A stretch of 64,000 bases of DNA from Vicinamibacterales bacterium (lineage in GTDB: Bacteria; Acidobacteriota; Vicinamibacteria; Vicinamibacterales; UBA8438), in assembly GCA_965262925.1 (NCBI GenBank), contig CBDHGC010000004.1:6481112-6545111 (forward strand). Direction: 5' to 3'. Shown one piece after another: positions 7,182 through 14,533 of the stretch. Within the stretch, counting starts at the first letter, position 1. Each line of letters opens with the position of its first letter. The position numbers and the translations under genes were made by a program. Under the pieces are notes generated by a model. It had not been told where the DNA came from and searched no databases. It saw only the letters and a list, made by a program, of their open reading frames with translations.

Positions 7182-9637
7182 CTGCCCGTGCCCCATATTT
7201 TTTCGCTGAACTTCATGCAGCCACTTCGCTACGGTGGCCGGCATGGAGATTCAGAATCAGGTCTCACGTATTCTACGGGACAACCTCGCCCGCCTGCGCG
7301 ACGTGCTGGACGGAGCGGTGTCGCAGAGCGTCGGCAGCCTCGGGCAGGTCGCCGACCGCGTCTGTGAAGCGTTCGATTTCCGCGACGGGCGGGGCCGGTG
7401 GCAGCGCGCGAGCTGCTGCCGGGCGTTGTCCGACCTGCAAGCGGCCGGCCACGTTTCGCTGCCTGCGGGCCAGCCGGCTCGCGGCGTTGGGGGCCGGGCG
7501 CGGGTGCTTCCGCACCCGATGGCGCCGGCCGTGGACGTGCCGGGCACGGTCGGCAAGGTTGCGGGTCTGACCCTGGCGCTGGTTGAGACCGACGCGCAGC
7601 GCCAAGTCTGGAACACGCTGATGGCGTACGAGCACCCGCGCGGCGCCGGTCCGTTCGTCGGCCCGCAACTGCGGTATCTGGTGGGTTCGGCGCATGGTTG
7701 GCTGGGCGGCGTCGGGTTCGCGGCGAGTGCGCGGCGGCTGCGGTCCCGCGACGCCTGGGTCGGGTGGGACGACACGGGCCGGCGCGCGCACCTGCACCGG
7801 GTGTTGGGACTGTGCCGGCTGCTGGTGCGCCCCGGCATTGTGTGTCGCAACCTGGCCTCGCACGTGCTGGGCCGGGTCGTCCGGGCAGTCGGCGACGACT
7901 GCGAGGGTCTGTATGGCTATCGCCCCTGGCTGCTGGAGACGTTCGTCGACGAGACCGAACAGACGGGGGCGAGCGTGCGCGCGGCCAACTGGGTTCGGGT
8001 GGGCGCAACCTGCGGTCGCGGTCGCGGGGACCGCAGGCACGCGGCACTGGAAACGCGCAAGGCGGTGTATATGTATGCCTTGGAGCCGGCGTGGCGCACC
8101 CGCCTCGCGGCGCCCGCAGCGGTCGTGGCGCCGCTGGCGGTTGGCGACGGTCTCGACGCCGCGGTCTGGGCGGACCACGAGTTCGGCGGGGCGCGGTTGG
8201 GCGACGCGCGTCTGAGCGCGCGGCTGGTACAGAGCGCGCAGCAAATGGCAGAGTCTCCGATGCGCGCCATCACCGGCGCCGCCCACGGCGCCCGCGCCCT
8301 GGTCAAGGGCCATTACCGGCTGATCGACCAGCCCGCCGACAGCGCGGTGACGGTCGGCAACATTCTCGCGCCGCATCGCGAGCGCACGCTGCGCCGGATG
8401 CAGGCGCACGACACGGTGCTGTGCATCCAGGACGGCACCCGCCTGAACTTCACCCGGCGCGGCCGGACGCAGGGGCTGGGGGCCATCGGCTCGAACCAGA
8501 CCGGCGCGGTGGCGCGCGGCCTGGAGTTGCACACGACCTTGGCCGCCAATCCCGACGGGGTGGCGTTGGGCGTGCTGCGGGCCGCCTTCGACGCGCCCGC
8601 GTCCCCGAACCCCGCGGCGGAAGGCGAGCCGCCCCCGAAGCCGCGCGAGGAGCGCAAGTCGTTCCGTTGGATCGAGGGACTGCGCGACTGCGCGCAAGCG
8701 GCCGAGTCATTGTCCGAGACCCGCGTGGTGTGCGTGATGGACCGCGAGGCCGATTTCCTCGACCTGTTCGTCGAGCACCGCGCGGCTGCCCCGCAGGTCG
8801 ACCTGTTGGTCCGCGCCAAGGCCGACCGCGTCCTCGGCAGGGAGCAGACGCCCGACGGGCAGACAGTCTCGCGCCGTCTGTTCGATACGGTGCGCAACGC
8901 GCCGGCCCGAGGCGCCGCCAAGGTCGAGGTGCAGCGGCTGAGCGCGCGCGTGAAGGCCAGCAAACAGGCCCGCAAGGACCGCCGCGAGGCGCGTGTCGCC
9001 GACGTGACGCTGCGCTACCAGCAGGTGGCGCTGCCCTGCCCCGGCGCCGCGCCGGTCGAACTGTGGGTCGTCCATGTACGCGAGCAACAGCCGCCGCCTG
9101 CGGCCGAGCCGCTGGAGTGGTTCCTGCTGACCACGTTGCGTGTGAGCAGCGCCGCTGACGCCACGCGCATCCTGCAATGGTACGCTCGGCGCTGGCGCAT
9201 CGAAGAATACTTCCGGGTGCTCAAGTCGGGCTGCAGCGTCGAGGAGTTGCAGCACCACACGGCCGAGCGGCTCGAACGCGCCATGGCCATCAAGATGGTC
9301 ATCGGGTGGCGCATCCAGTTGATGGTTCAACTCGGGCGCGAAGTGCCCGACCTGCCGGGCGACCTGCTGTTCTCCGATGGCGAGTTGCGCGTGCTCGCCA
9401 CCTTCGCCCGCTCACGCAAGCTGCCGCCGCCGGCGCGCCTCGGCGACGCTGTCGGTCTGGTCGGGCGCCTCGGCGGTTGGCTCGGACGCCAACGCGACCC
9501 GCCCGGCGCACAGTTGATGTGGCACGGCTACACCCAACTGGTTGCCATGGCCTTCGCCTTCGAACTACGGGACGAATTCGGGTGACCTCCTGCTCATTAC
9601 ATTACAGTTCAGCCTCGGACATCCGGGGCACGGGTAG
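7182..9637 (+). mobile_element. Tn5/IS50-like (IS4 family) insertion sequence, 2456 bp
   Basis: IRL is CTGCCCGTGCCCC...CTGAACT (7182-7212). IRR (reverse complement of 9606-9637) is CTACCCGTGCCCC...CTGAACT. Flanks are nearly identical: GCCTAGCT (7174-7181) versus GCGTAGCT (9638-9645), consistent with an 8-9-bp target duplication. Confidence 0.8.
7234..9585 (+). CDS. Tn5-like DDE transposase with ~300-aa N-terminal DUF4338/DruA-like extension
   Basis: The C-terminal 470 aa resemble Tn5 Tnp: WADHEFGGARLGDARLSARLV..., VLCIQDGTRL, VCVMDREADF, WYARRWRIEEYFRVLKSGC. The N-terminal block has LRYLV...GWLGGVGF..RD.WVGW...RNLASHVLGR...YGYRPWLLETFVD, recalled as the DUF4338 pattern. Not HMM-verified. Confidence 0.85.
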   Translation: MAGMEIQNQVSRILRDNLARLRDVLDGAVSQSVGSLGQVADRVCEAFDFRDGRGRWQRASCCRALSDLQAAGHVSLPAGQPARGVGGRARVLPHPMAPAVDVPGTVGKVAGLTLALVETDAQRQVWNTLMAYEHPRGAGPFVGPQLRYLVGSAHGWLGGVGFAASARRLRSRDAWVGWDDTGRRAHLHRVLGLCRLLVRPGIVCRNLASHVLGRVVRAVGDDCEGLYGYRPWLLETFVDETEQTGASVRAANWVRVGATCGRGRGDRRHAALETRKAVYMYALEPAWRTRLAAPAAVVAPLAVGDGLDAAVWADHEFGGARLGDARLSARLVQSAQQMAESPMRAITGAAHGARALVKGHYRLIDQPADSAVTVGNILAPHRERTLRRMQAHDTVLCIQDGTRLNFTRRGRTQGLGAIGSNQTGAVARGLELHTTLAANPDGVALGVLRAAFDAPASPNPAAEGEPPPKPREERKSFRWIEGLRDCAQAAESLSETRVVCVMDREADFLDLFVEHRAAAPQVDLLVRAKADRVLGREQTPDGQTVSRRLFDTVRNAPARGAAKVEVQRLSARVKASKQARKDRREARVADVTLRYQQVALPCPGAAPVELWVVHVREQQPPPAAEPLEWFLLTTLRVSSAADATRILQWYARRWRIEEYFRVLKSGCSVEELQHHTAERLERAMAIKMVIGWRIQLMVQLGREVPDLPGDLLFSDGELRVLATFARSRKLPPPARLGDAVGLVGRLGGWLGRQRDPPGAQLMWHGYTQLVAMAFAFELRDEFG

Positions 9638-9679
9638 GCGTAGCTCGGCGCGGACCCGCGCGACCTCGAAGAGCGACCT

Positions 9680-9898
9680 TCGCCTCTCGAGGCCAAATGA
9701 AGCGAAAGCGGAATTCTCAAAGCAGGGATTCGAGCCCGGAGCCGCGGGAGCGGCGGAGCGCCTGAAGCCCACTCTCGCCGCCAAAACACACGGCAGGCAA
9801 CGGCGGAATTCTCAAAGCAGGGATTCGAGCCCGGAGCCGCGGGAGCGGCGGAGCGCCTGAATCCCACTCTCGCCGCCAAATGAAGCGAAAGCGGAATT
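9680..9898. repeat. tRNA-Ser(GGA) 3'-end-derived palindromic tandem repeats (~2.3 units, period ~95 bp)
   Basis: Units are anchored on GGGATTCGAGCCC at 9725 and 9820. Each contains CCTGAA(G/T)CCCACTCTCGCCGCCAAA, the sense copy of the tRNA 3' end, on the strand opposite the gene. The array directly abuts the tRNA 3' end. Confidence 0.85.
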
Positions 9899-9991
9899 TG
9901 GCGGAGAGAGTGGGATTCGAACCCACGGTAGGAGGATTACCCCTACACACGCTTTCCAAGCGTGCACCTTCAACCTCTCGGACATCTCTCC
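9899..9991 (-). tRNA. tRNA-Ser (anticodon GGA), CCA encoded
   Basis: GGAGAGATGTCCGAGAGGTTGAAGGTGCACGCTTGGAAAGCGTGTGTAGGGGTAATCCTCCTACCGTGGGTTCGAATCCCACTCTCTCCGCCA. 7-bp acceptor stem, anticodon loop TTGGAAA, long variable arm, T-loop TTCGAAT. Confidence 0.92.
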
Positions 9992-10081
9992 GCGCGCATC
10001 GGCATCCGATGCTCTTGACAGTCTACCAGCCCGGCGGATGACTCAGGCAGCGCAACGCACGCGGACCGCGGCCGGCAACCG

Positions 10082-10762
10082 TCAGAATTCCCGTAGGCGC
10101 GACGACACGATGACATCCATCGCGCGGATATCCCTCTGCTGCACGAGGAGAGCCTTGTACGCGTGGTTGTACGCCTGCAGCATGTAGCCGAGCCGGGTCG
10201 TCCGGGCCAGACGGATCAGTCCTCCCCCGGAAGCGAGTTCCACGTAAACCTCGTCGCCGTCCTGCACCCGGCGGCTCGGGACTGCGATCGCGACGGTCTT
10301 CGGCCGGTGAGCTGGAACCATCGAGTCGCCACTGATCAGAATCCCGTAGGCGTCCGGATCGCGCAGGTCTCTCGGCCGGGACACCCAGTGCACGACGCCG
10401 GTCCGCTCTGCCCCCCGGTCGTCCCACGAGAGACCCGCCGGCGAAGCATCGCCCTCTGCCACCACCGGAATGCCGGCGGGTGTCACGATCGGGGATTCGA
10501 TACGCTCAGGTGCCGCACCAGCCACTCCGCACGCCTCCCGCACCCGGTCGTAGTCCGGATCGACCCCTACGAGCAACTCATCGACTGAGCAGCGGAGACC
10601 CTTCGCGATCTTGACGAGAGTCAGCGTTTCCAGGACGGAATAGCGGTCATTCTCCCAGTCAGAGACCTGGGGCTGCGGGACGCCCAGCAGGTCGGCCAAC
10701 GCCTTCTGCGTGTCAAGCCCCGCGTCCCGGCGCAACCGCCTGATGTTCTGGCCCAGCGACAC
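10082..10762 (-). CDS. XRE-HTH / S24 (LexA/CI-like) repressor, paralog A
   Basis: N-terminal HTH QKALADLLGVPQPQVSDWENDRY. C-terminal S24 fold with GDSM serine motif. The position aligned to LexA K156 (Ser+37) reads LIRLA, i.e. Arg. GTG start. Confidence 0.85.
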   Translation of the reverse strand: MSLGQNIRRLRRDAGLDTQKALADLLGVPQPQVSDWENDRYSVLETLTLVKIAKGLRCSVDELLVGVDPDYDRVREACGVAGAAPERIESPIVTPAGIPVVAEGDASPAGLSWDDRGAERTGVVHWVSRPRDLRDPDAYGILISGDSMVPAHRPKTVAIAVPSRRVQDGDEVYVELASGGGLIRLARTTRLGYMLQAYNHAYKALLVQQRDIRAMDVIVSSRLREF

Positions 10763-10872
10763 AAGAGACAGATTACCGCACCGACGACCAAACGTGAAAG
10801 AACTTACACGCGCGGAATCAATCAGTTAACGTAGAACCTGCCGTTCGTCCGACGAACGTCGCGAGGGCCTCG
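10763..10872. promoter_or_regulatory. Control region upstream of repressor A with ACGT-core boxes and a conserved leader box
   Basis: AT-richer spacer with AAACGTGA, TAACGTAG and GAACGTCG. The leader ACAGATTACCGCA (10768-10780) is identical to 11558-11570. A CGTTCG-N5-CGAACG hairpin (10842-10858) follows the stop of paralog B. Confidence 0.3.
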
Positions 10873-11559
10873 TCAGAAGTCCCGGCGGCGCGAGTACAGA
10901 ATGACGTGCATGGAATGAATGTCTTTCGCCTTGACGAAGCGCGCCGTGTAGACGTGATTGTACGTCTGCAGCATGTAGCCGCCGTGGGTCGCGTACGCCA
11001 AGCGGACCAGACACTCGCCGGACGGCAACCTGACGTAAACCTCGTCACCGTCCTGCACCCGACGGCCGGGAGACACGATCACGATGGAGCTCGGCCGGTG
11101 CGCCGGGGCCATCGAGTCGCCACGGATCTGAACGCCGTAAGCGTTCGGATCACGCAGATCCCCGGGGCGCGATATCCACTGCACGATGTCGGCTCGCTCT
11201 CTGCCCCGGTCGTCCGAGGTGACACCGTCCGGCAACGCCTCGCCTTCCGCCACCACGGGAATGTCAACGGGCACTTCGACCAGGAGATCGACGCTGGCAG
11301 CCTCGCGGACGGCGGCGCCGGTAGCCTCCCGAACCCGGTCGTAGTCCGGATCGATGCCCGCAAGCAACTGGTCCACGGAGCAGCGGAGGCCTTTCGCGAT
11401 CTTGACGAGGGTCAGGGTTTCCAGGACCGCGTAGCGGTCGTTCTCCCAGTCGGACACCTGGGGTTGCGGGACGCCCAGCAGGTCTGCCAGCGCCTTCTGG
11501 GTCTGGAGACCGGCCTCCCAACGCAGCCGCTTGATGTTCTGACCGAGCGACACGACCAC
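10873..11559 (-). CDS. XRE-HTH / S24 (LexA/CI-like) repressor, paralog B
   Basis: About 65-70% identical to paralog A, with a nearly identical HTH. Has GDSM; the Lys-equivalent position reads LVRLA (Arg). Start is GTG 11559 or GTG 11553. Confidence 0.85.
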   Translation of the reverse strand: MVVSLGQNIKRLRWEAGLQTQKALADLLGVPQPQVSDWENDRYAVLETLTLVKIAKGLRCSVDQLLAGIDPDYDRVREATGAAVREAASVDLLVEVPVDIPVVAEGEALPDGVTSDDRGRERADIVQWISRPGDLRDPNAYGVQIRGDSMAPAHRPSSIVIVSPGRRVQDGDEVYVRLPSGECLVRLAYATHGGYMLQTYNHVYTARFVKAKDIHSMHVILYSRRRDF

Positions 11560-11674
11560 AGATTACCGCATTTGAGGGTTCACGTTCAAAAACGTACCTC
11601 AATTCAATCAATGACTTACCGCTCAAAAAAATAGTCTTTACACGTTACTCCCGACCACATATAGTCAGAACCCG
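11560..11674. promoter_or_regulatory. Divergent control region between repressor B and the Cro-like gene
   Basis: AT-rich 115 bp. Contains CACGTTCAAAAACGTAC (arms ACGTT/AACGT, 11581-11597) and CACGTTAC (11641-11648). ATTGATTGA-like -35 candidates are shared with the paralog A upstream region. Confidence 0.35.
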
Positions 11675-11926
11675 ATGCTCACCAAGCAGCAACTCGAGAT
11701 CCTCCGTTCCGAGCCCGGCACCAACCGCGTGGCGAAGGCTATCGCCCTGGCCGGAGTCACGCAGGTGACCGTCGCCGAGGGACTCGGTTTGCCGCAGCCC
11801 TACGTCAGCGACGTGGCGCGACAACGCTACAAGACTATTACCGTCGAGAACGCCAGAAAGTTCGCAAAATTTTTCGGCTGCTCGATCGAGGACCTGTTCC
11901 CGCCGGCCGACGGGGGCAACTCGTGA
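11675..11926 (+). CDS. Small XRE/Cro-type HTH protein
   Basis: 83 aa. HTH GVTQVTVAEGLGLPQPYVSDVARQRY shares the LG.PQP.VSD...RY signature with both S24 repressors. Divergently transcribed from repressor B. Confidence 0.75.
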   Translation: MLTKQQLEILRSEPGTNRVAKAIALAGVTQVTVAEGLGLPQPYVSDVARQRYKTITVENARKFAKFFGCSIEDLFPPADGGNS

Positions 11927-11963
11927 CCCGGCGCATCGTCCGGCGGCCGTCGCCGAGGCGCCC

Positions 11964-12290
11964 GTGACGAGCCCGGCTCAACGCGATCGCGAGTTCACCT
12001 TCGGAAGCACGCCCTGCTACGTTGTCGTCCGGGCAGGCACGCCGCCGACCACGAGCGCGGCGATCGCCGACGTCTTCATCGTCGAAGAAGGGGGACGGGC
12101 TCTCCGCCGGATCGCCAACGCCCAAGGTACGCCGAGAACATTCAATGCCGATGGCGCCGACGAGGCGCTCGCCCTCGCGGCCCTGTACCTGGAGCGCCAT
12201 TTCGGACCACTTCGAGACGCCCCGGTCCCCGTCCCCGAACACGGTCCCGCCCGCCCCGTTCGCGAGCCGCCCCTGCGCCGGACCGACTGA
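11964..12290 (+). CDS. Hypothetical protein (108 aa)
   Basis: GTG-initiated ORF with high third-position GC. Lies downstream of and co-oriented with the Cro-like gene. No recognisable motif. Confidence 0.35.
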   Translation: MTSPAQRDREFTFGSTPCYVVVRAGTPPTTSAAIADVFIVEEGGRALRRIANAQGTPRTFNADGADEALALAALYLERHFGPLRDAPVPVPEHGPARPVREPPLRRTD

Positions 12291-12329
12291 CGGAACCGGC
12301 GAGTCCAGCGCCGGCAAGCATGGACGGGG

Positions 12330-12801
12330 CAAGGGATTCGTGCCCGAAGCGGCGCGAGCCGCGCAGCGCCTGAATCCCACCCTCTCCGCCAAATGGAGCG
12401 AATGCGGAATTTGGCGAAAAAACGAGCAGGGATTCGTGCCCGAAGCGGCGCGAGCCGCGCAGCGCCTGAATCCCACCCTCTCCGCCAAATGGAGCGAATG
12501 CGGAAATTTGGCGGAGAAAACGAGCAGGGATTCGTGCCCGGAGCGGCGGGAGCCGCGCAGCGCCTGAATCCCACCCTCTCCGCCAAATGGAGCGAATGCG
12601 GAAATTTGGCGGAGAAAACGAGCAGGGATTCGTGCCCGGAGCGGCGGGAGCCGCGCAGCGCCTGAATCCCACCCTCTCCGCCAAATGGAGCGAATGCGGA
12701 AATTTGGCGGAGAAAACGAGCAGGGATTCGTGCCCGGAGCGGCGGGAGCCGCGGAGCGCCTGAATCCCACCCTCTCCACCAAATGGAGCGAATGCGGAAT
12801 T
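12330..12801. repeat. tRNA-Ser(CGA) 3'-end-derived palindromic tandem repeats (~4.8 units, period 96-98 bp)
   Basis: GGGATTCGTGCCC anchors at 12333, 12429, 12527, 12625 and 12723. Each unit carries GAATCCCACCCTCTCCGCCA, the last 20 nt of the adjacent tRNA, on the opposite strand, plus a degenerate antisense arm TTTGGCGGAGAAAACGAGCAGGGATTC. Ends exactly at the tRNA 3' end. Confidence 0.9.
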
Positions 12802-12892
12802 TGGCGGAGAGGGTGGGATTCGAACCCACGTGCCGGTTTCCCGACAAGACGCTTTCGAGGCGCCCCCGTTACGACCACTTCGGTACCTCTCC
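12802..12892 (-). tRNA. tRNA-Ser (anticodon CGA), CCA encoded
   Basis: GGAGAGGTACCGAAGTGGTCGTAACGGGGGCGCCTCGAAAGCGTCTTGTCGGGAAACCGGCACGTGGGTTCGAATCCCACCCTCTCCGCCA. Anticodon loop CTCGAAA, long variable arm. Confidence 0.9.
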
Positions 12893-12933
12893 GCGTGGTG
12901 GCCTTCCATTGTACGCCGGCCGGCGTCCCCGCG

Positions 12934-13413
12934 TCAGCCGGCCGGCGCATCCGCCGCGTGCCGCCGCGCGCTGAAGAACGCCTGCATCCTGCCGCGGCAC
13001 TCGTCGCCGAGGACGCCGGCGACCACCGCCACGCGATGATTCAGCGCCGGATGCTCGAGCGCGCGCATCACGGAACGCACGGCTCCCGCCTTCGGCTCGG
13101 GGGCGCCGTACACCAGCGTGCCAATCCGCGCATGAACCAGCGCACCGGCGCACATCAGACACGGCTCGACGGTCACGTACAGCGTCGCGCCGGTCAGCCG
13201 GTAATTGCCCGCGCGACGGGCCGCGTCGCGCAGAGCCACGACCTCGGCGTGCGCCGTCGGATCGACCTCCCCGATCGGGTGGTTGAAGCCGCGGCCGATG
13301 ATGCGCCCCGTGTCGCGCTCGACCACGACGGCGCCCACCGGCACCTCGTCGCTGGCCATCGCCCTGGATGCTTCCGCCAGGGCCTCCCGCATGTACGCCT
13401 CGTGCTCGACCAT
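12934..13413 (-). CDS. tadA: tRNA-specific adenosine deaminase
   Basis: CDA zinc motifs HAEVVAL and [15 protein letters not shown] at 13413 ([12 protein letters not shown]) is preferred to the long ORF start at 13560, which would overlap the next gene. Confidence 0.9.
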
Positions 13414-13468
13414 CGGAATCGCGGGGGCGGCGGTTCGCCGATGCAGCCCGCTATGATTATCCTCCACG

Positions 13469-14533
13469 ATGAAGGGACTCATCCTCAGCGGCGGCAGGGG
13501 CACGCGCCTGCGGCCGCTCACGTTCACCAGCGCCAAGCAGCTCGTCCCGGTGGCGAACAAGCCGGTGCTGTTCTACGGCATCGAAACGCTGGCCGCGGCC
13601 GGGATCCGCGAGATCGGCATCGTCGTGGGCGATACGCAGGCGGAAATCGAGGCAGCGGTCGGCGACGGGTCGCAATGGGGGGTGACGGTCAGCTACATTC
13701 CGCAGGACGCGCCGCGCGGACTCGCGCATGCCGTGCGGATCGCCGAACCGTTCATCGGAGACGATCCCTTCGTGATGTACCTGGGCGACAACCTGCTCGC
13801 GAAAGGCATCGTCCCGTTCGTCGAGGAATTCGCGGCGACGCGGCCGGCGGCCCAGATTCTGCTCACGCCGGTGCCGCACCCGGAGCAGTACGGCGTGGCC
13901 GAGACCGACGGCGACCGGGTTGTCCGGCTGATCGAGAAGCCGAAGATCCCCAGGAGCAACCTGGCCCTGGTGGGCGTCTACATGTTCGGCCCCGCGATCT
14001 TCGAATCGGTCCGGCGGATCGCGCCGAGCCTCAGGAACGAGCTCGAGATCACGGACGCGATACAGGACCTGATCGACCGCGGTCTGGAGGTCCGCCGCCA
14101 CATCGTCGACGGGTGGTGGAAGGACACCGGGCGCCTGGAGGACCTGCTGGAGGCCAACCGGCTGATCCTCGACACCCTGACCCGGCGGATCGACGGCGCG
14201 GTGGACGCTGAATCGCGTGTCGAGGGCAAGGTCGTGGTCGAGCCGGGCGCGGTCATTTCGGGGTCGGTGGTCCGCGGCCCGGTCATCATCGGACATGATG
14301 CACGCATCCGCGACGCGTACATCGGGCCGTTCACCGCGATCATGCGCGACGTGGAGATCAGCGGGTCCGAGATCGAGCACAGCATCGTGATGGAGGGCAG
14401 CCGCATCACGGACCTGACCGGCCGCGTCACCGACAGCCTGATCGGCCGCAGCGTCACCATCGCCCGCCATTCCGGCAAGCCGGCGGCGCTGCGGTTCATG
14501 CTCGGCGACCGCTCGGAAGTGGGCCTTCGCTGA
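13469..14533 (+). CDS. Glucose-1-phosphate thymidylyltransferase, long form with left-handed beta-helix C-terminus
   Basis: [30 protein letters not shown] nucleotidyltransferase signature. 354 aa. Sits in the rml gene context. Confidence 0.85.

Follow-up and report, generated by a model that had tools for sequence, protein, structure and literature searches.

What is a divergent pair of cI- and cro-like genes doing in a bacterial chromosome with no phage genes beside it? We analysed a stretch of 64,000 nt (the window; G000:C4:6481112-6545111) from a Vicinamibacterales genome of 11.3 Mb and 68% guanine plus cytosine (GC). In it, the interval from tRNA-Ser(gga) to tRNA-Ser(cga) contains four open reading frames (ORFs): S24A and S24B, which encode tandem repressors with an XRE-type helix-turn-helix (HTH) and an S24-like domain, a gene for a Cro-like HTH protein, and ORF108. 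Between the two tRNA genes we found no integrase, no attachment (att) repeats and no phage genes, nor is the interval bounded by a direct duplication of a tRNA end. The reading that we favour, with moderate confidence, is that the immunity region of a temperate phage, with cI facing cro, was domesticated here and passed down as part of the chromosome in three genera of a single Vicinamibacterales family, and that its repressors are probably pseudo-proteases.

Repressor and Cro genes and their control regions

S24A (10082..10762, minus strand) was called at 226 amino acids (aa) and S24B (10873..11559, minus strand) at 228 aa; the latter is probably also 226 aa long, since only its second GTG (11553) is conserved as a start in relatives. 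Both proteins matched HTH_3 and Peptidase_S24 above the Pfam cut-offs; for Peptidase_S24 (PF00717, cut-off 23.3 bits) S24B scored 41.3 bits and S24A 24.7, a bare pass. Divergent from S24B lies the gene for the Cro-like protein (11675..11926, plus strand; HTH_3), followed on its 3' side by ORF108 (11964..12290, plus strand), which encodes a small conserved protein (see below). An earlier note on this DNA had described this same content, and our annotation agrees with it on the positions of ORFs and tRNAs, on the tandem XRE-HTH/S24 paralogs of 226-228 aa (~65-70% identical in the note, 67% over 226 aa in our alignment), on the divergent 83-aa Cro-like HTH and on a 108-aa ORF without family match. 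The signature that it had singled out (LG.PQP.VSD...RY) is, as LG(L/V)PQP.VSD...RY, common to the Cro-like protein and both repressors (39-40% identity over ~50 aa), and the recognition-helix motif PQPxVSD is the same in all three.

The AlphaFold2 (AF2) model of S24B, built with 63 homologs, reached a predicted local distance difference test score (pLDDT) of 79.8 and showed an HTH, as expected, joined by a linker of low confidence to a beta-domain. Its top Foldseek matches were lambda CI (3bdn), LexA and UmuD', with probability 1.00, in keeping with the Pfam assignment of an S24 beta-fold to the C-terminal domain, and the protein matched PHROG 4, 'transcriptional repressor', with an E value of 1e-32. 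Together with the prophage-borne relatives (see below), these matches sustain the proposal that this is a CI/Cro-type divergent module of phage ancestry. Searches with PADLOC and NCBIfam assigned no defence system or toxin-antitoxin system, and returned only weak, sub-threshold HTH matches (RstR, DicA, HipB and HigA-type).

The arrangement of control sequences is that of a CI/Cro switch: the 115-bp spacer between S24B and the Cro gene (11560..11674) contains promoters for both divergent genes and shared boxes that overlap both -35 regions. A promoter scan placed the Cro promoter at -35 TTTACA (11637-11642) and -10 TATAGT (11660-11665), with a 17-nt spacer, 10/12 matches and 9 nt to the ATG. 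Conservation was read from a footprint alignment of ten loci from the window's own genus (g1), and also from genus g3 and from a sister lineage whose repressors bear Lys at the base position (see below). In that alignment an invariant 13-mer, GTCTTTACACGTT (11634-11646; AACGTGTAAAGAC on the S24B strand), overlaps the -35 of Cro, while a palindromic operator, ACGTT-N4-AACGT (11582-11595; TACGT-N5/6-ACGTG in g1), overlaps the TTGAAC -35 of S24B. A further conserved element, GCG(G/A)TAA(T/C)CT, lies a few nt 5' of the conserved GTG and corresponds to the 13-mer of the earlier note, ACAGATTACCGCA, whose only two copies in the genome are at 10768-10780 and 11558-11570. Within its second copy, the S24B -10 region GCGGTAATCT would be both the -10 and the start of a leaderless or near-leaderless transcript; its -10 hexamer is a weak match and the promoter tool made no call there. 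Both the Cro and the S24 transcripts are probably leaderless.

The S24A control region (10763..10830, minus strand) carries the other copy of the 13-mer, TGCGGTAATCTGT (10768-10780), 5 nt before the GTG, and a box pair, GTAAGTTCTTTCACGT (10792-10807). Compared by eye, this spacer is a degenerate copy of the S24B operator/promoter layout (GTAAGTTCTTTCACGT ... GCGGTAATCT), which agrees with the earlier claim that the duplication took its promoter and leader along. A 13-mer and an operator of the form ACGT-N6-ACGT are kept in g1, g3 and the Lys-bearing lineage alike, and the latter two retain TACGTGTTT(A/G)CACGTG.

Six ACGT cores are present, as had been counted before (10792, 10829, 10856, 11582, 11592 and 11642), but the statement that fewer than one was expected holds only against the window-wide density (4.25 per kb, or ~1); dinucleotide-preserving shuffles of the two AT-richer spacers gave 2.4 (P ~0.01), and the core at 10856 sits in a hairpin 3' of S24B, outside the control regions. 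The count is unusual to a modest degree, and conservation in relatives is the better evidence for these putative boxes. The hairpin is an inverted repeat, CGTTCGTC-G-GACGAACG (10837..10862, minus strand), just 3' of the stop codon of S24B, with a possible role in termination or attenuation; for want of a T-run the terminator scan did not call it. A genome-wide operator search for a regulon was given up as a lead: the strict operator occurs once in the genome, at the S24B promoter, and a looser motif gave 13 GC-rich sites in a chance-like pattern. The module looks self-contained and not the head of a regulon.

Catalytic positions of the S24 domains

Self-cleavage by repressors of this fold depends on a Ser nucleophile, a Lys general base and an Ala-Gly or Cys-Gly scissile bond. 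The HMM search that the earlier note had called for found HTH_3 with Peptidase_S24, and alignments to LexA, lambda CI and UmuD put the catalytic columns where the note had read them. In a MAFFT alignment with the Escherichia coli LexA, lambda CI and UmuD sequences, the GDSM of both repressors (Ser147 in S24A, Ser149 in S24B), a G-x-S-M nucleophile motif, fell in the Ser119/149/60 column, and Arg184 (S24A) and Arg186 (S24B) in the K156/K192/K97 column. The phmmer alignment to 3bdn likewise set the Arg of LVRLA opposite the first Lys of TFKKL, that is K192, and the spacing between Ser and Arg is 37 residues in both proteins, as in LexA S119/K156. Arg thus stands in place of the general base in both window proteins. 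The scissile site, a point absent from the earlier note, is altered as well: V-A-E-G aligns with V-A-A|G of LexA, V-Q-A|G of CI and V-Q-C|G of UmuD, so that P1 is Glu (Glu103-Gly104 in S24A, Glu105-Gly106 in S24B). Two features of a self-cleaving S24 repressor, the Lys and the Ala-Gly bond, are therefore missing here. We know of no characterised S24 repressor whose presumed scissile bond has Glu where Ala or Cys is usual.

Among 120 homologs with at least 57% identity, P1 was Glu in 119 and P1' was Gly in all; the nucleophile position held Ser in 104 and Ala in 16, and the base position Arg in 113 and Lys in 4. Glu and Arg were retained in every one of the 16 Ala variants. In a pooled set of 170 non-redundant homologs, Arg-bearing proteins had Ser 102 times and Ala 17 times and Lys-bearing ones had Ser 46 times and Ala never (Fisher P = 0.004, for rows that are phylogenetically non-independent). 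On the tree, the change from Ser to Ala comprises all of genus g6, g3 proteins that are close to Ser-bearing ones, and at least two g1 branches. More distant relatives (30-45% identity), collected by an exhaustive HMMER search, retain Glu-Gly (EGEAS), Ser and the canonical Lys (GERLIKIA). On these alignments, Arg at the base position is a family trait and not an accident of two genes. An internal control is offered by four to five LexA paralogs in the same genome with canonical Ala-Gly, Ser and Lys, from which it follows that high GC alone does not displace a Lys that is needed. Because Ala appears only in the Arg background, and because the host LexA controls are canonical, the Ser would seem to have been relaxed once Lys had become Arg, and such relaxed constraint is what we read as a pseudo-protease signature.

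The genome holds five to six LexA-like paralogs in all (G000:C4:6852356-6852952, 4777778-4778377, 7941660-7942187, 1796276-1796872, 3836483-3837082 and 3552356-3552956), of which the one at ~3552356 seems frameshifted. The paralog at 3836483-3837082 reads Pro-Gly, Ser and Arg; its scissile site is thus non-canonical too, and it looks like a second, independent case of a non-cleavable S24 repressor.

It is unlikely, in our judgement, that the repressors still cleave themselves, a Ser-Arg pair cutting Glu-Gly, perhaps only with RecA* or at high pH, so that the switch would be stress-inducible with altered kinetics. Several observations nevertheless speak for this and weigh against our own reading. 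The Ser is kept in ~86% of the Arg-bearing proteins (102/119), both window copies included, and GDSM is well conserved, which leaves room for some Ser-dependent activity. The wider phage clade joins Glu-Gly with intact Ser and Lys, so repressors that presumably work tolerate Glu at P1, and Glu-Gly may be a usable site. LexA K156R (Lin and Little, 1989) reportedly retains RecA-dependent cleavage and loses autodigestion; if so, Arg need not abolish catalysis. One protein 99% identical to S24B (P0001, a 90%-cluster representative) has Cys (LVCLA) at residue 186 (window 11002-11004), which argues against a strict structural requirement for Arg; this change was not seen in four RNA runs aligned to the window. 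Two other points concern the module as a working switch: ORF108, its presumed output (see below), is absent from most g1 and all g3 genomes and so cannot be a universal output, and evidence for expression is weak, in that metatranscriptome contigs (Logan, modest depth) span 10572-12416 but are unstranded, so that the two divergent transcripts are not told apart, and may reflect DNA carry-over.

Against continued self-cleavage stands the repeated loss of the nucleophile: Ser changed to Ala at least four times, in the Arg background only, and in g6 all proteins have Ala and yet the gene, the Glu and the Arg are kept. The canonical LexA paralogs of the same genome keep their Lys, and its Arg-bearing LexA paralog has also lost the Ala of Ala-Gly. 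The earlier claim of a GDSM Ser with Arg at Ser+37 is borne out by the alignments above; its corollary, that Arg would disable or alter canonical autocleavage, is supported too, since the replacement speaks against self-cleavage of the canonical kind.

Ancestry, inheritance and the neighbouring tRNA genes

Distant Lys-bearing relatives of the repressors (30-45% identity) sit in temperate-phage immunity regions (L035-L038). In L035/L036 a 91-aa HTH protein faces an S24 repressor with a tyrosine integrase directly after it, and the Cro side continues into a long early operon of ~17 small genes, one of which encodes a PD-(D/E)XK nuclease. In L037/L038 the protein facing the repressor is an 89-aa HTH, with HTH_17, ParB_N, YfdP and DUF2303 among the early genes; over 63 residues, the protein in the Cro position of L037 shares 51% identity with the window Cro. 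Since the relatives of both repressor and Cro are prophage-borne, both halves of the module descend from a phage cI/cro unit. We also noted a clade of prophage CI-like repressors (~45 representative proteins) with Glu-Gly, Glu-Ala or Glu-Val at the scissile position and with Ser and Lys kept.

Closer to the window is the Lys-bearing sister lineage (P0045, P0052, P0057 and P0058), in which ORF110, a homolog of ORF108, is followed by an 84-aa Cro facing S24 and then by tRNA-Ser(gga), with the same operators. In one genome of this lineage (L039/L042) a tyrosine integrase and AlpA adjoin ORF110. The tree leaves the Lys of the P0045 lineage compatible with an ancestral state or with reversal.

Within the sampled order (121 genomes) the repressor was confined to the window's own family, where it occurred in 39 of 104 genomes belonging to three genera and was absent from the other 15 genera. 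It was found in 13 of 15 g1 genomes (1-8 copies each), in all 20 g3 genomes listed (19 with a single full copy) and in 6 of 6 g6 genomes (single copy). The recurrent order in g1 is rmlA, tadA, tRNA-Ser(cga), [ORF108], Cro, S24B, [S24A], tRNA-Ser(gga), with variants that have a single repressor (L011, L012 and L014) or S24A beyond Cro (L015, L016, L018 and L021). In g6 a single S24 gene faces an ORF108 homolog between the same two tRNA genes and Cro is absent, and in g3 a Cro-S24 pair lies at a different chromosomal site with synteny extending over 10 kb, without a tRNA gene within 5 kb and without repeats close by. In two g1 genomes (G209 and G214) the site is empty: tRNA-Ser(cga), next to tadA, is separated from tRNA-Ser(gga) by 80 or 170 nt. 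The earlier note held that its proposal would be refuted if the four-gene block proved to be core genome of known function throughout the relatives; the module is conserved in three genera, is absent from the rest of the family and of the order, and has no known function.

In a maximum-likelihood tree the repressors adjoining tRNA-Ser(gga) formed one clade, 'A' (support 100/99), and those adjoining Cro were of the 'B' type. These clades span species; therefore the duplication is old and both copies have been maintained. The ratio of nonsynonymous to synonymous substitution rates (dN/dS), computed between the window and L013, was 0.32 for S24A (HTH 0.06), 0.29 for S24B (HTH 0.02), 0.18 for Cro and 0.45 for ORF108, and the module is under purifying selection. 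Repressor divergence grows together with that of RmlA and TadA, and the Cro-like protein is 78-100% identical in relatives.

Four more full-length S24 paralogs in this genome (G000:C4:2831229-2831879, 8342445-8343095, 1614989-1615639 and 3355330-3355980) form a third clade (support 100/100), and S24 fragments lie near 5970000, 3453500 and 8094322. The third-clade genes and several fragments are in mosaic, highly repeated DNA, with neighbouring segments in up to ~130 copies; upstream of these paralogs and fragments the DNA is rich in GC, and they have neither a Cro partner nor ACGT operators.

On its left the interval ends at tRNA-Ser(gga) (9899..9991, minus strand; ARAGORN, Rfam tRNA 53 bits), which lies directly 3' of the A-type repressor gene in the same orientation. 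Such adjacency of S24 and tRNA-Ser(gga) recurs in L010-L013, L015, L016, L018-L021 and L039-L041. The module might accordingly serve, in truth, the tRNA-Ser genes beside it or the trailers of these, say by controlling read-through into tRNA-Ser(gga) from autoregulated repressor promoters. A co-oriented S24 gene does stand immediately 5' of tRNA-Ser(gga) in nearly all g1, g6 and Lys-lineage loci, even in the split locus L019. We find this improbable all the same, for the g3 Cro-S24 pair has no tRNA within 5 kb and adjacency follows simply from insertion between two tRNA genes. Moreover, a -10-like element known from its conservation, TAGACT (10020..10025, minus strand), lies ~30 nt 5' of tRNA-Ser(gga) here and precedes that tRNA in an empty-site genome as well: CTG(A/G)TAGACTGTC is found in the gap between S24A and the tRNA in the window and in the tRNA-tRNA spacer of L034. 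This suggests that tRNA-Ser(gga) has a promoter of its own, and it was on account of this conserved promoter-like motif that we set aside dependence of the tRNA on repressor promoters as the leading interpretation.

The right end is formed by tRNA-Ser(cga) (12802..12892, minus strand; ARAGORN and Rfam), downstream of tadA (12934-13560, minus strand). Behind this tRNA, outside the switch, are five palindromic trailer repeats of 98 nt (12318..12801, minus strand), and a similar 98-nt array lies near tRNA-Ser(gga) (9684-9898). The arrays carry copies of the local tRNA 3' end, and in this genome the repeats occur at the two flanking loci and one further site, always behind tRNA-Ser genes. We considered them as att sites and rejected this, given that the tRNA ends are inverted, not direct, and that the repeats occur only in that position. 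The tie between regulators and repeat arrays that had been suggested earlier is not supported either, as the repeats belong to the tRNA trailers and the g3 pair has neither tRNA nor repeats. The array behind tRNA-Ser(cga), five units here, is replaced in L010 (5149-5272) by ~125 nt from tRNA to ORF108 with repressors 98-99% identical; repeat copy number therefore changes fast between closely related strains.

Quite improbable, too, is a minimal island that still moves, with the tRNA-Ser pair as its target and an integrase from another locus acting on it in trans. Its presence or absence within one genus lies exactly between the two tRNA genes (G209 and G214 being empty), its orientation relative to them varies by species, and the integrase and AlpA of L039/L042 stand beside an ORF108 homolog. 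Yet att-like direct repeats are missing at the ends of the interval, where the repeats are tRNA trailers with inverted tRNA ends, repressor divergence tracks that of RmlA and TadA, and the g3 pair occupies another, stably syntenic site. Between the window and L014-L021, the module or one tRNA-Ser is inverted from species to species, and in G208 (L017, L019) the locus has come apart, S24B-tRNA(cga)-tadA lying 1.7 Mb from S24A-tRNA(gga). Recombination could have produced such rearrangements, with either the two similar tRNA genes or the repressor paralogs as partners; in the case of the tRNA genes it can explain the inversions without mobility.

As to mobile genes, the earlier note had found no integrase, which holds for the interval, and a Tn5-type insertion sequence (IS) at 7182-9637 abuts the tRNA-Ser(gga) side. 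Its transposase (7234-9585, plus strand; 783 aa) has Tnp_DNA_bind, DDE_Tnp_1 and Dimer_Tnp_Tn5 domains and a DruA/DUF4338-like N-terminal domain (E 2e-20).

That the locus is a recently stranded, decaying immunity region of a prophage or satellite without current function, as its lack of integrase, replication and structural genes, the IS elements accumulating nearby, the phage-borne relatives of its genes and the empty site in two genomes of the genus might suggest, is very improbable and already appears largely refuted by conservation in 39 of the 104 family genomes and in three genera, intact ORFs, conserved operators, purifying selection and the keeping of A and B paralogs as separate orthologous lineages. 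Of the three options in the earlier note, decay thus falls, the minimal satellite finds no sign of an active satellite, and a chromosomal regulator pair is the best.

A phage switch probably kept by the host

The closest parallel is the CI/Cro switch of lambda (also P22 C2 and the 434 cI family). In both, an HTH repressor with an S24-type fold diverges from a small HTH Cro across a short spacer with back-to-back promoters and operators overlapping the -35 regions, and lambda CI (3bdn) was the best structural match. The lambda PRM transcript is also a likeness, the repressor transcript here being probably leaderless too. Unlike lambda, however, the module lies outside a prophage, in a conserved chromosomal locus with no phage genes in the interval; it has two tandem repressor paralogs and no lytic genes after Cro, only ORF108. 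Arg replaces Lys192, Glu replaces the Ala of Ala-Gly, and the Ser is dispensable in the window family.

Cryptic-prophage repressor pairs retained by the host are known from E. coli, namely DicA/DicC of Qin and RacR of Rac, which belong to recognisable prophages restricted to a species and have no S24 domain. They resemble our locus as phage immunity pairs kept after most phage genes were lost, whereas the window module spans three genera and contains a single non-regulator gene. Loss of cleavage has a precedent in the LexA of Synechocystis sp. PCC 6803, a non-cleavable repressor of the S24 fold with Gly-Gly and with Ser changed to Asp, repurposed away from SOS (PMC3091678). It shares with our proteins the drifted scissile site and catalytic residues; it differs in its winged-helix N-domain, in being a global regulator, in the residues changed and in having no Cro partner and no phage ancestry. 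PrlP of Streptococcus suis is a chromosomal XRE-HTH/S24 regulator outside a prophage that self-cleaves under stress at Ala155-Gly156 (PMC12273997). The window repressors are likewise chromosomal HTH and S24 proteins, but their site and base are non-canonical and their cleavage is doubtful.

We propose that S24B, S24A and the Cro-like protein would compete for ACGT-core operators overlapping the -35 of the two back-to-back promoters. The result would be a bistable switch of the CI/Cro type, chiefly self-regulating, with repressors expressed in one state and Cro and ORF108 in the other. The S24 domain keeps the LexA/CI fold, probably for dimerisation and cooperativity only, and most likely does not cleave itself, with the base Lys replaced by Arg, Glu at P1 and Ser repeatedly lost in the Arg lineage. 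The switch is therefore probably uncoupled from RecA and SOS; if it flips at all, the trigger would be the balance of repressor to Cro or another partner.

ORF108, the only non-regulator gene, would be the likely output where it is present. It had no family in Pfam, NCBIfam, PADLOC or PHROG, and its AF2 model (pLDDT 74) had no Foldseek match in the PDB at E<0.1. We found 12 homologs: identity was 74-97% in L013 and L010, 55% in the Lys-bearing module and ~40% in genus g6, where the protein is the divergent partner of S24.

This genome also contains ~30 Cro-like paralogs with 60-83% aa identity (e.g., G000:C4 3467850-3469800, L009:1850-3800), as against 1-7 in other g1 genomes and 1 in g3. They belong to an element with a ~2-kb core of ORF107, Cro-like gene and ORF206 in 17-22 copies, 5-7 of which share ~6 kb; several of the Cro copies have stops or frameshifts. 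Nearly all paralogs retain the recognition helix LGLPQPYVSDVARQRY and ACGT boxes beside the -35 and -10, and similarity to the window copy ends at the ends of the coding sequence. ORF107 and ORF206 had no Pfam, PHROG or PDB match, and their support as genes is the codon-phase bias of their substitutions.

Two more speculative ideas we regard as rather unlikely: one is that a predicted Glu(P1)-Arg salt bridge would act as a latch holding the former cleavage strand permanently in a dead active site, the other that the chromosomal pair would be a master immunity locus sensing or restraining the swarm of phage-derived elements that carry the ~30 Cro paralogs. The second idea rises from the one recognition helix that the window regulators and the paralogs share. 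Were the latch true, a damage-inducible phage repressor would have become constitutive or partner-gated, by a defined route to a pseudoenzyme after domestication.

More than 20 metagenome runs, belonging to several studies, contained sequence nearly identical to window 9600-12950, as did metatranscriptomes, among them sponge-associated ones; the organism, or strains close to it, is therefore widespread and may be associated with sponges. Acidobacteria of soil and sponges retain the module as chromosomal genes. For annotation, the pipeline label 'LexA-like peptidase S24' is probably wrong as to function. What is new is a graded series in one gene family, the invariance of Glu at P1, and an entire cI/cro cassette, set between two tRNA genes, that is conserved at the level of genera. 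Four states are seen: prophage-borne with Glu-Gly, Ser and Lys; chromosomal with Lys; with Arg; and with Arg and the Ser lost. The locus is in this respect a dated comparative example of the passage from a phage lysis-lysogeny switch to a host regulator, and the series makes testable the fate of a CI-like, SOS-sensing protease once no prophage remains to induce.

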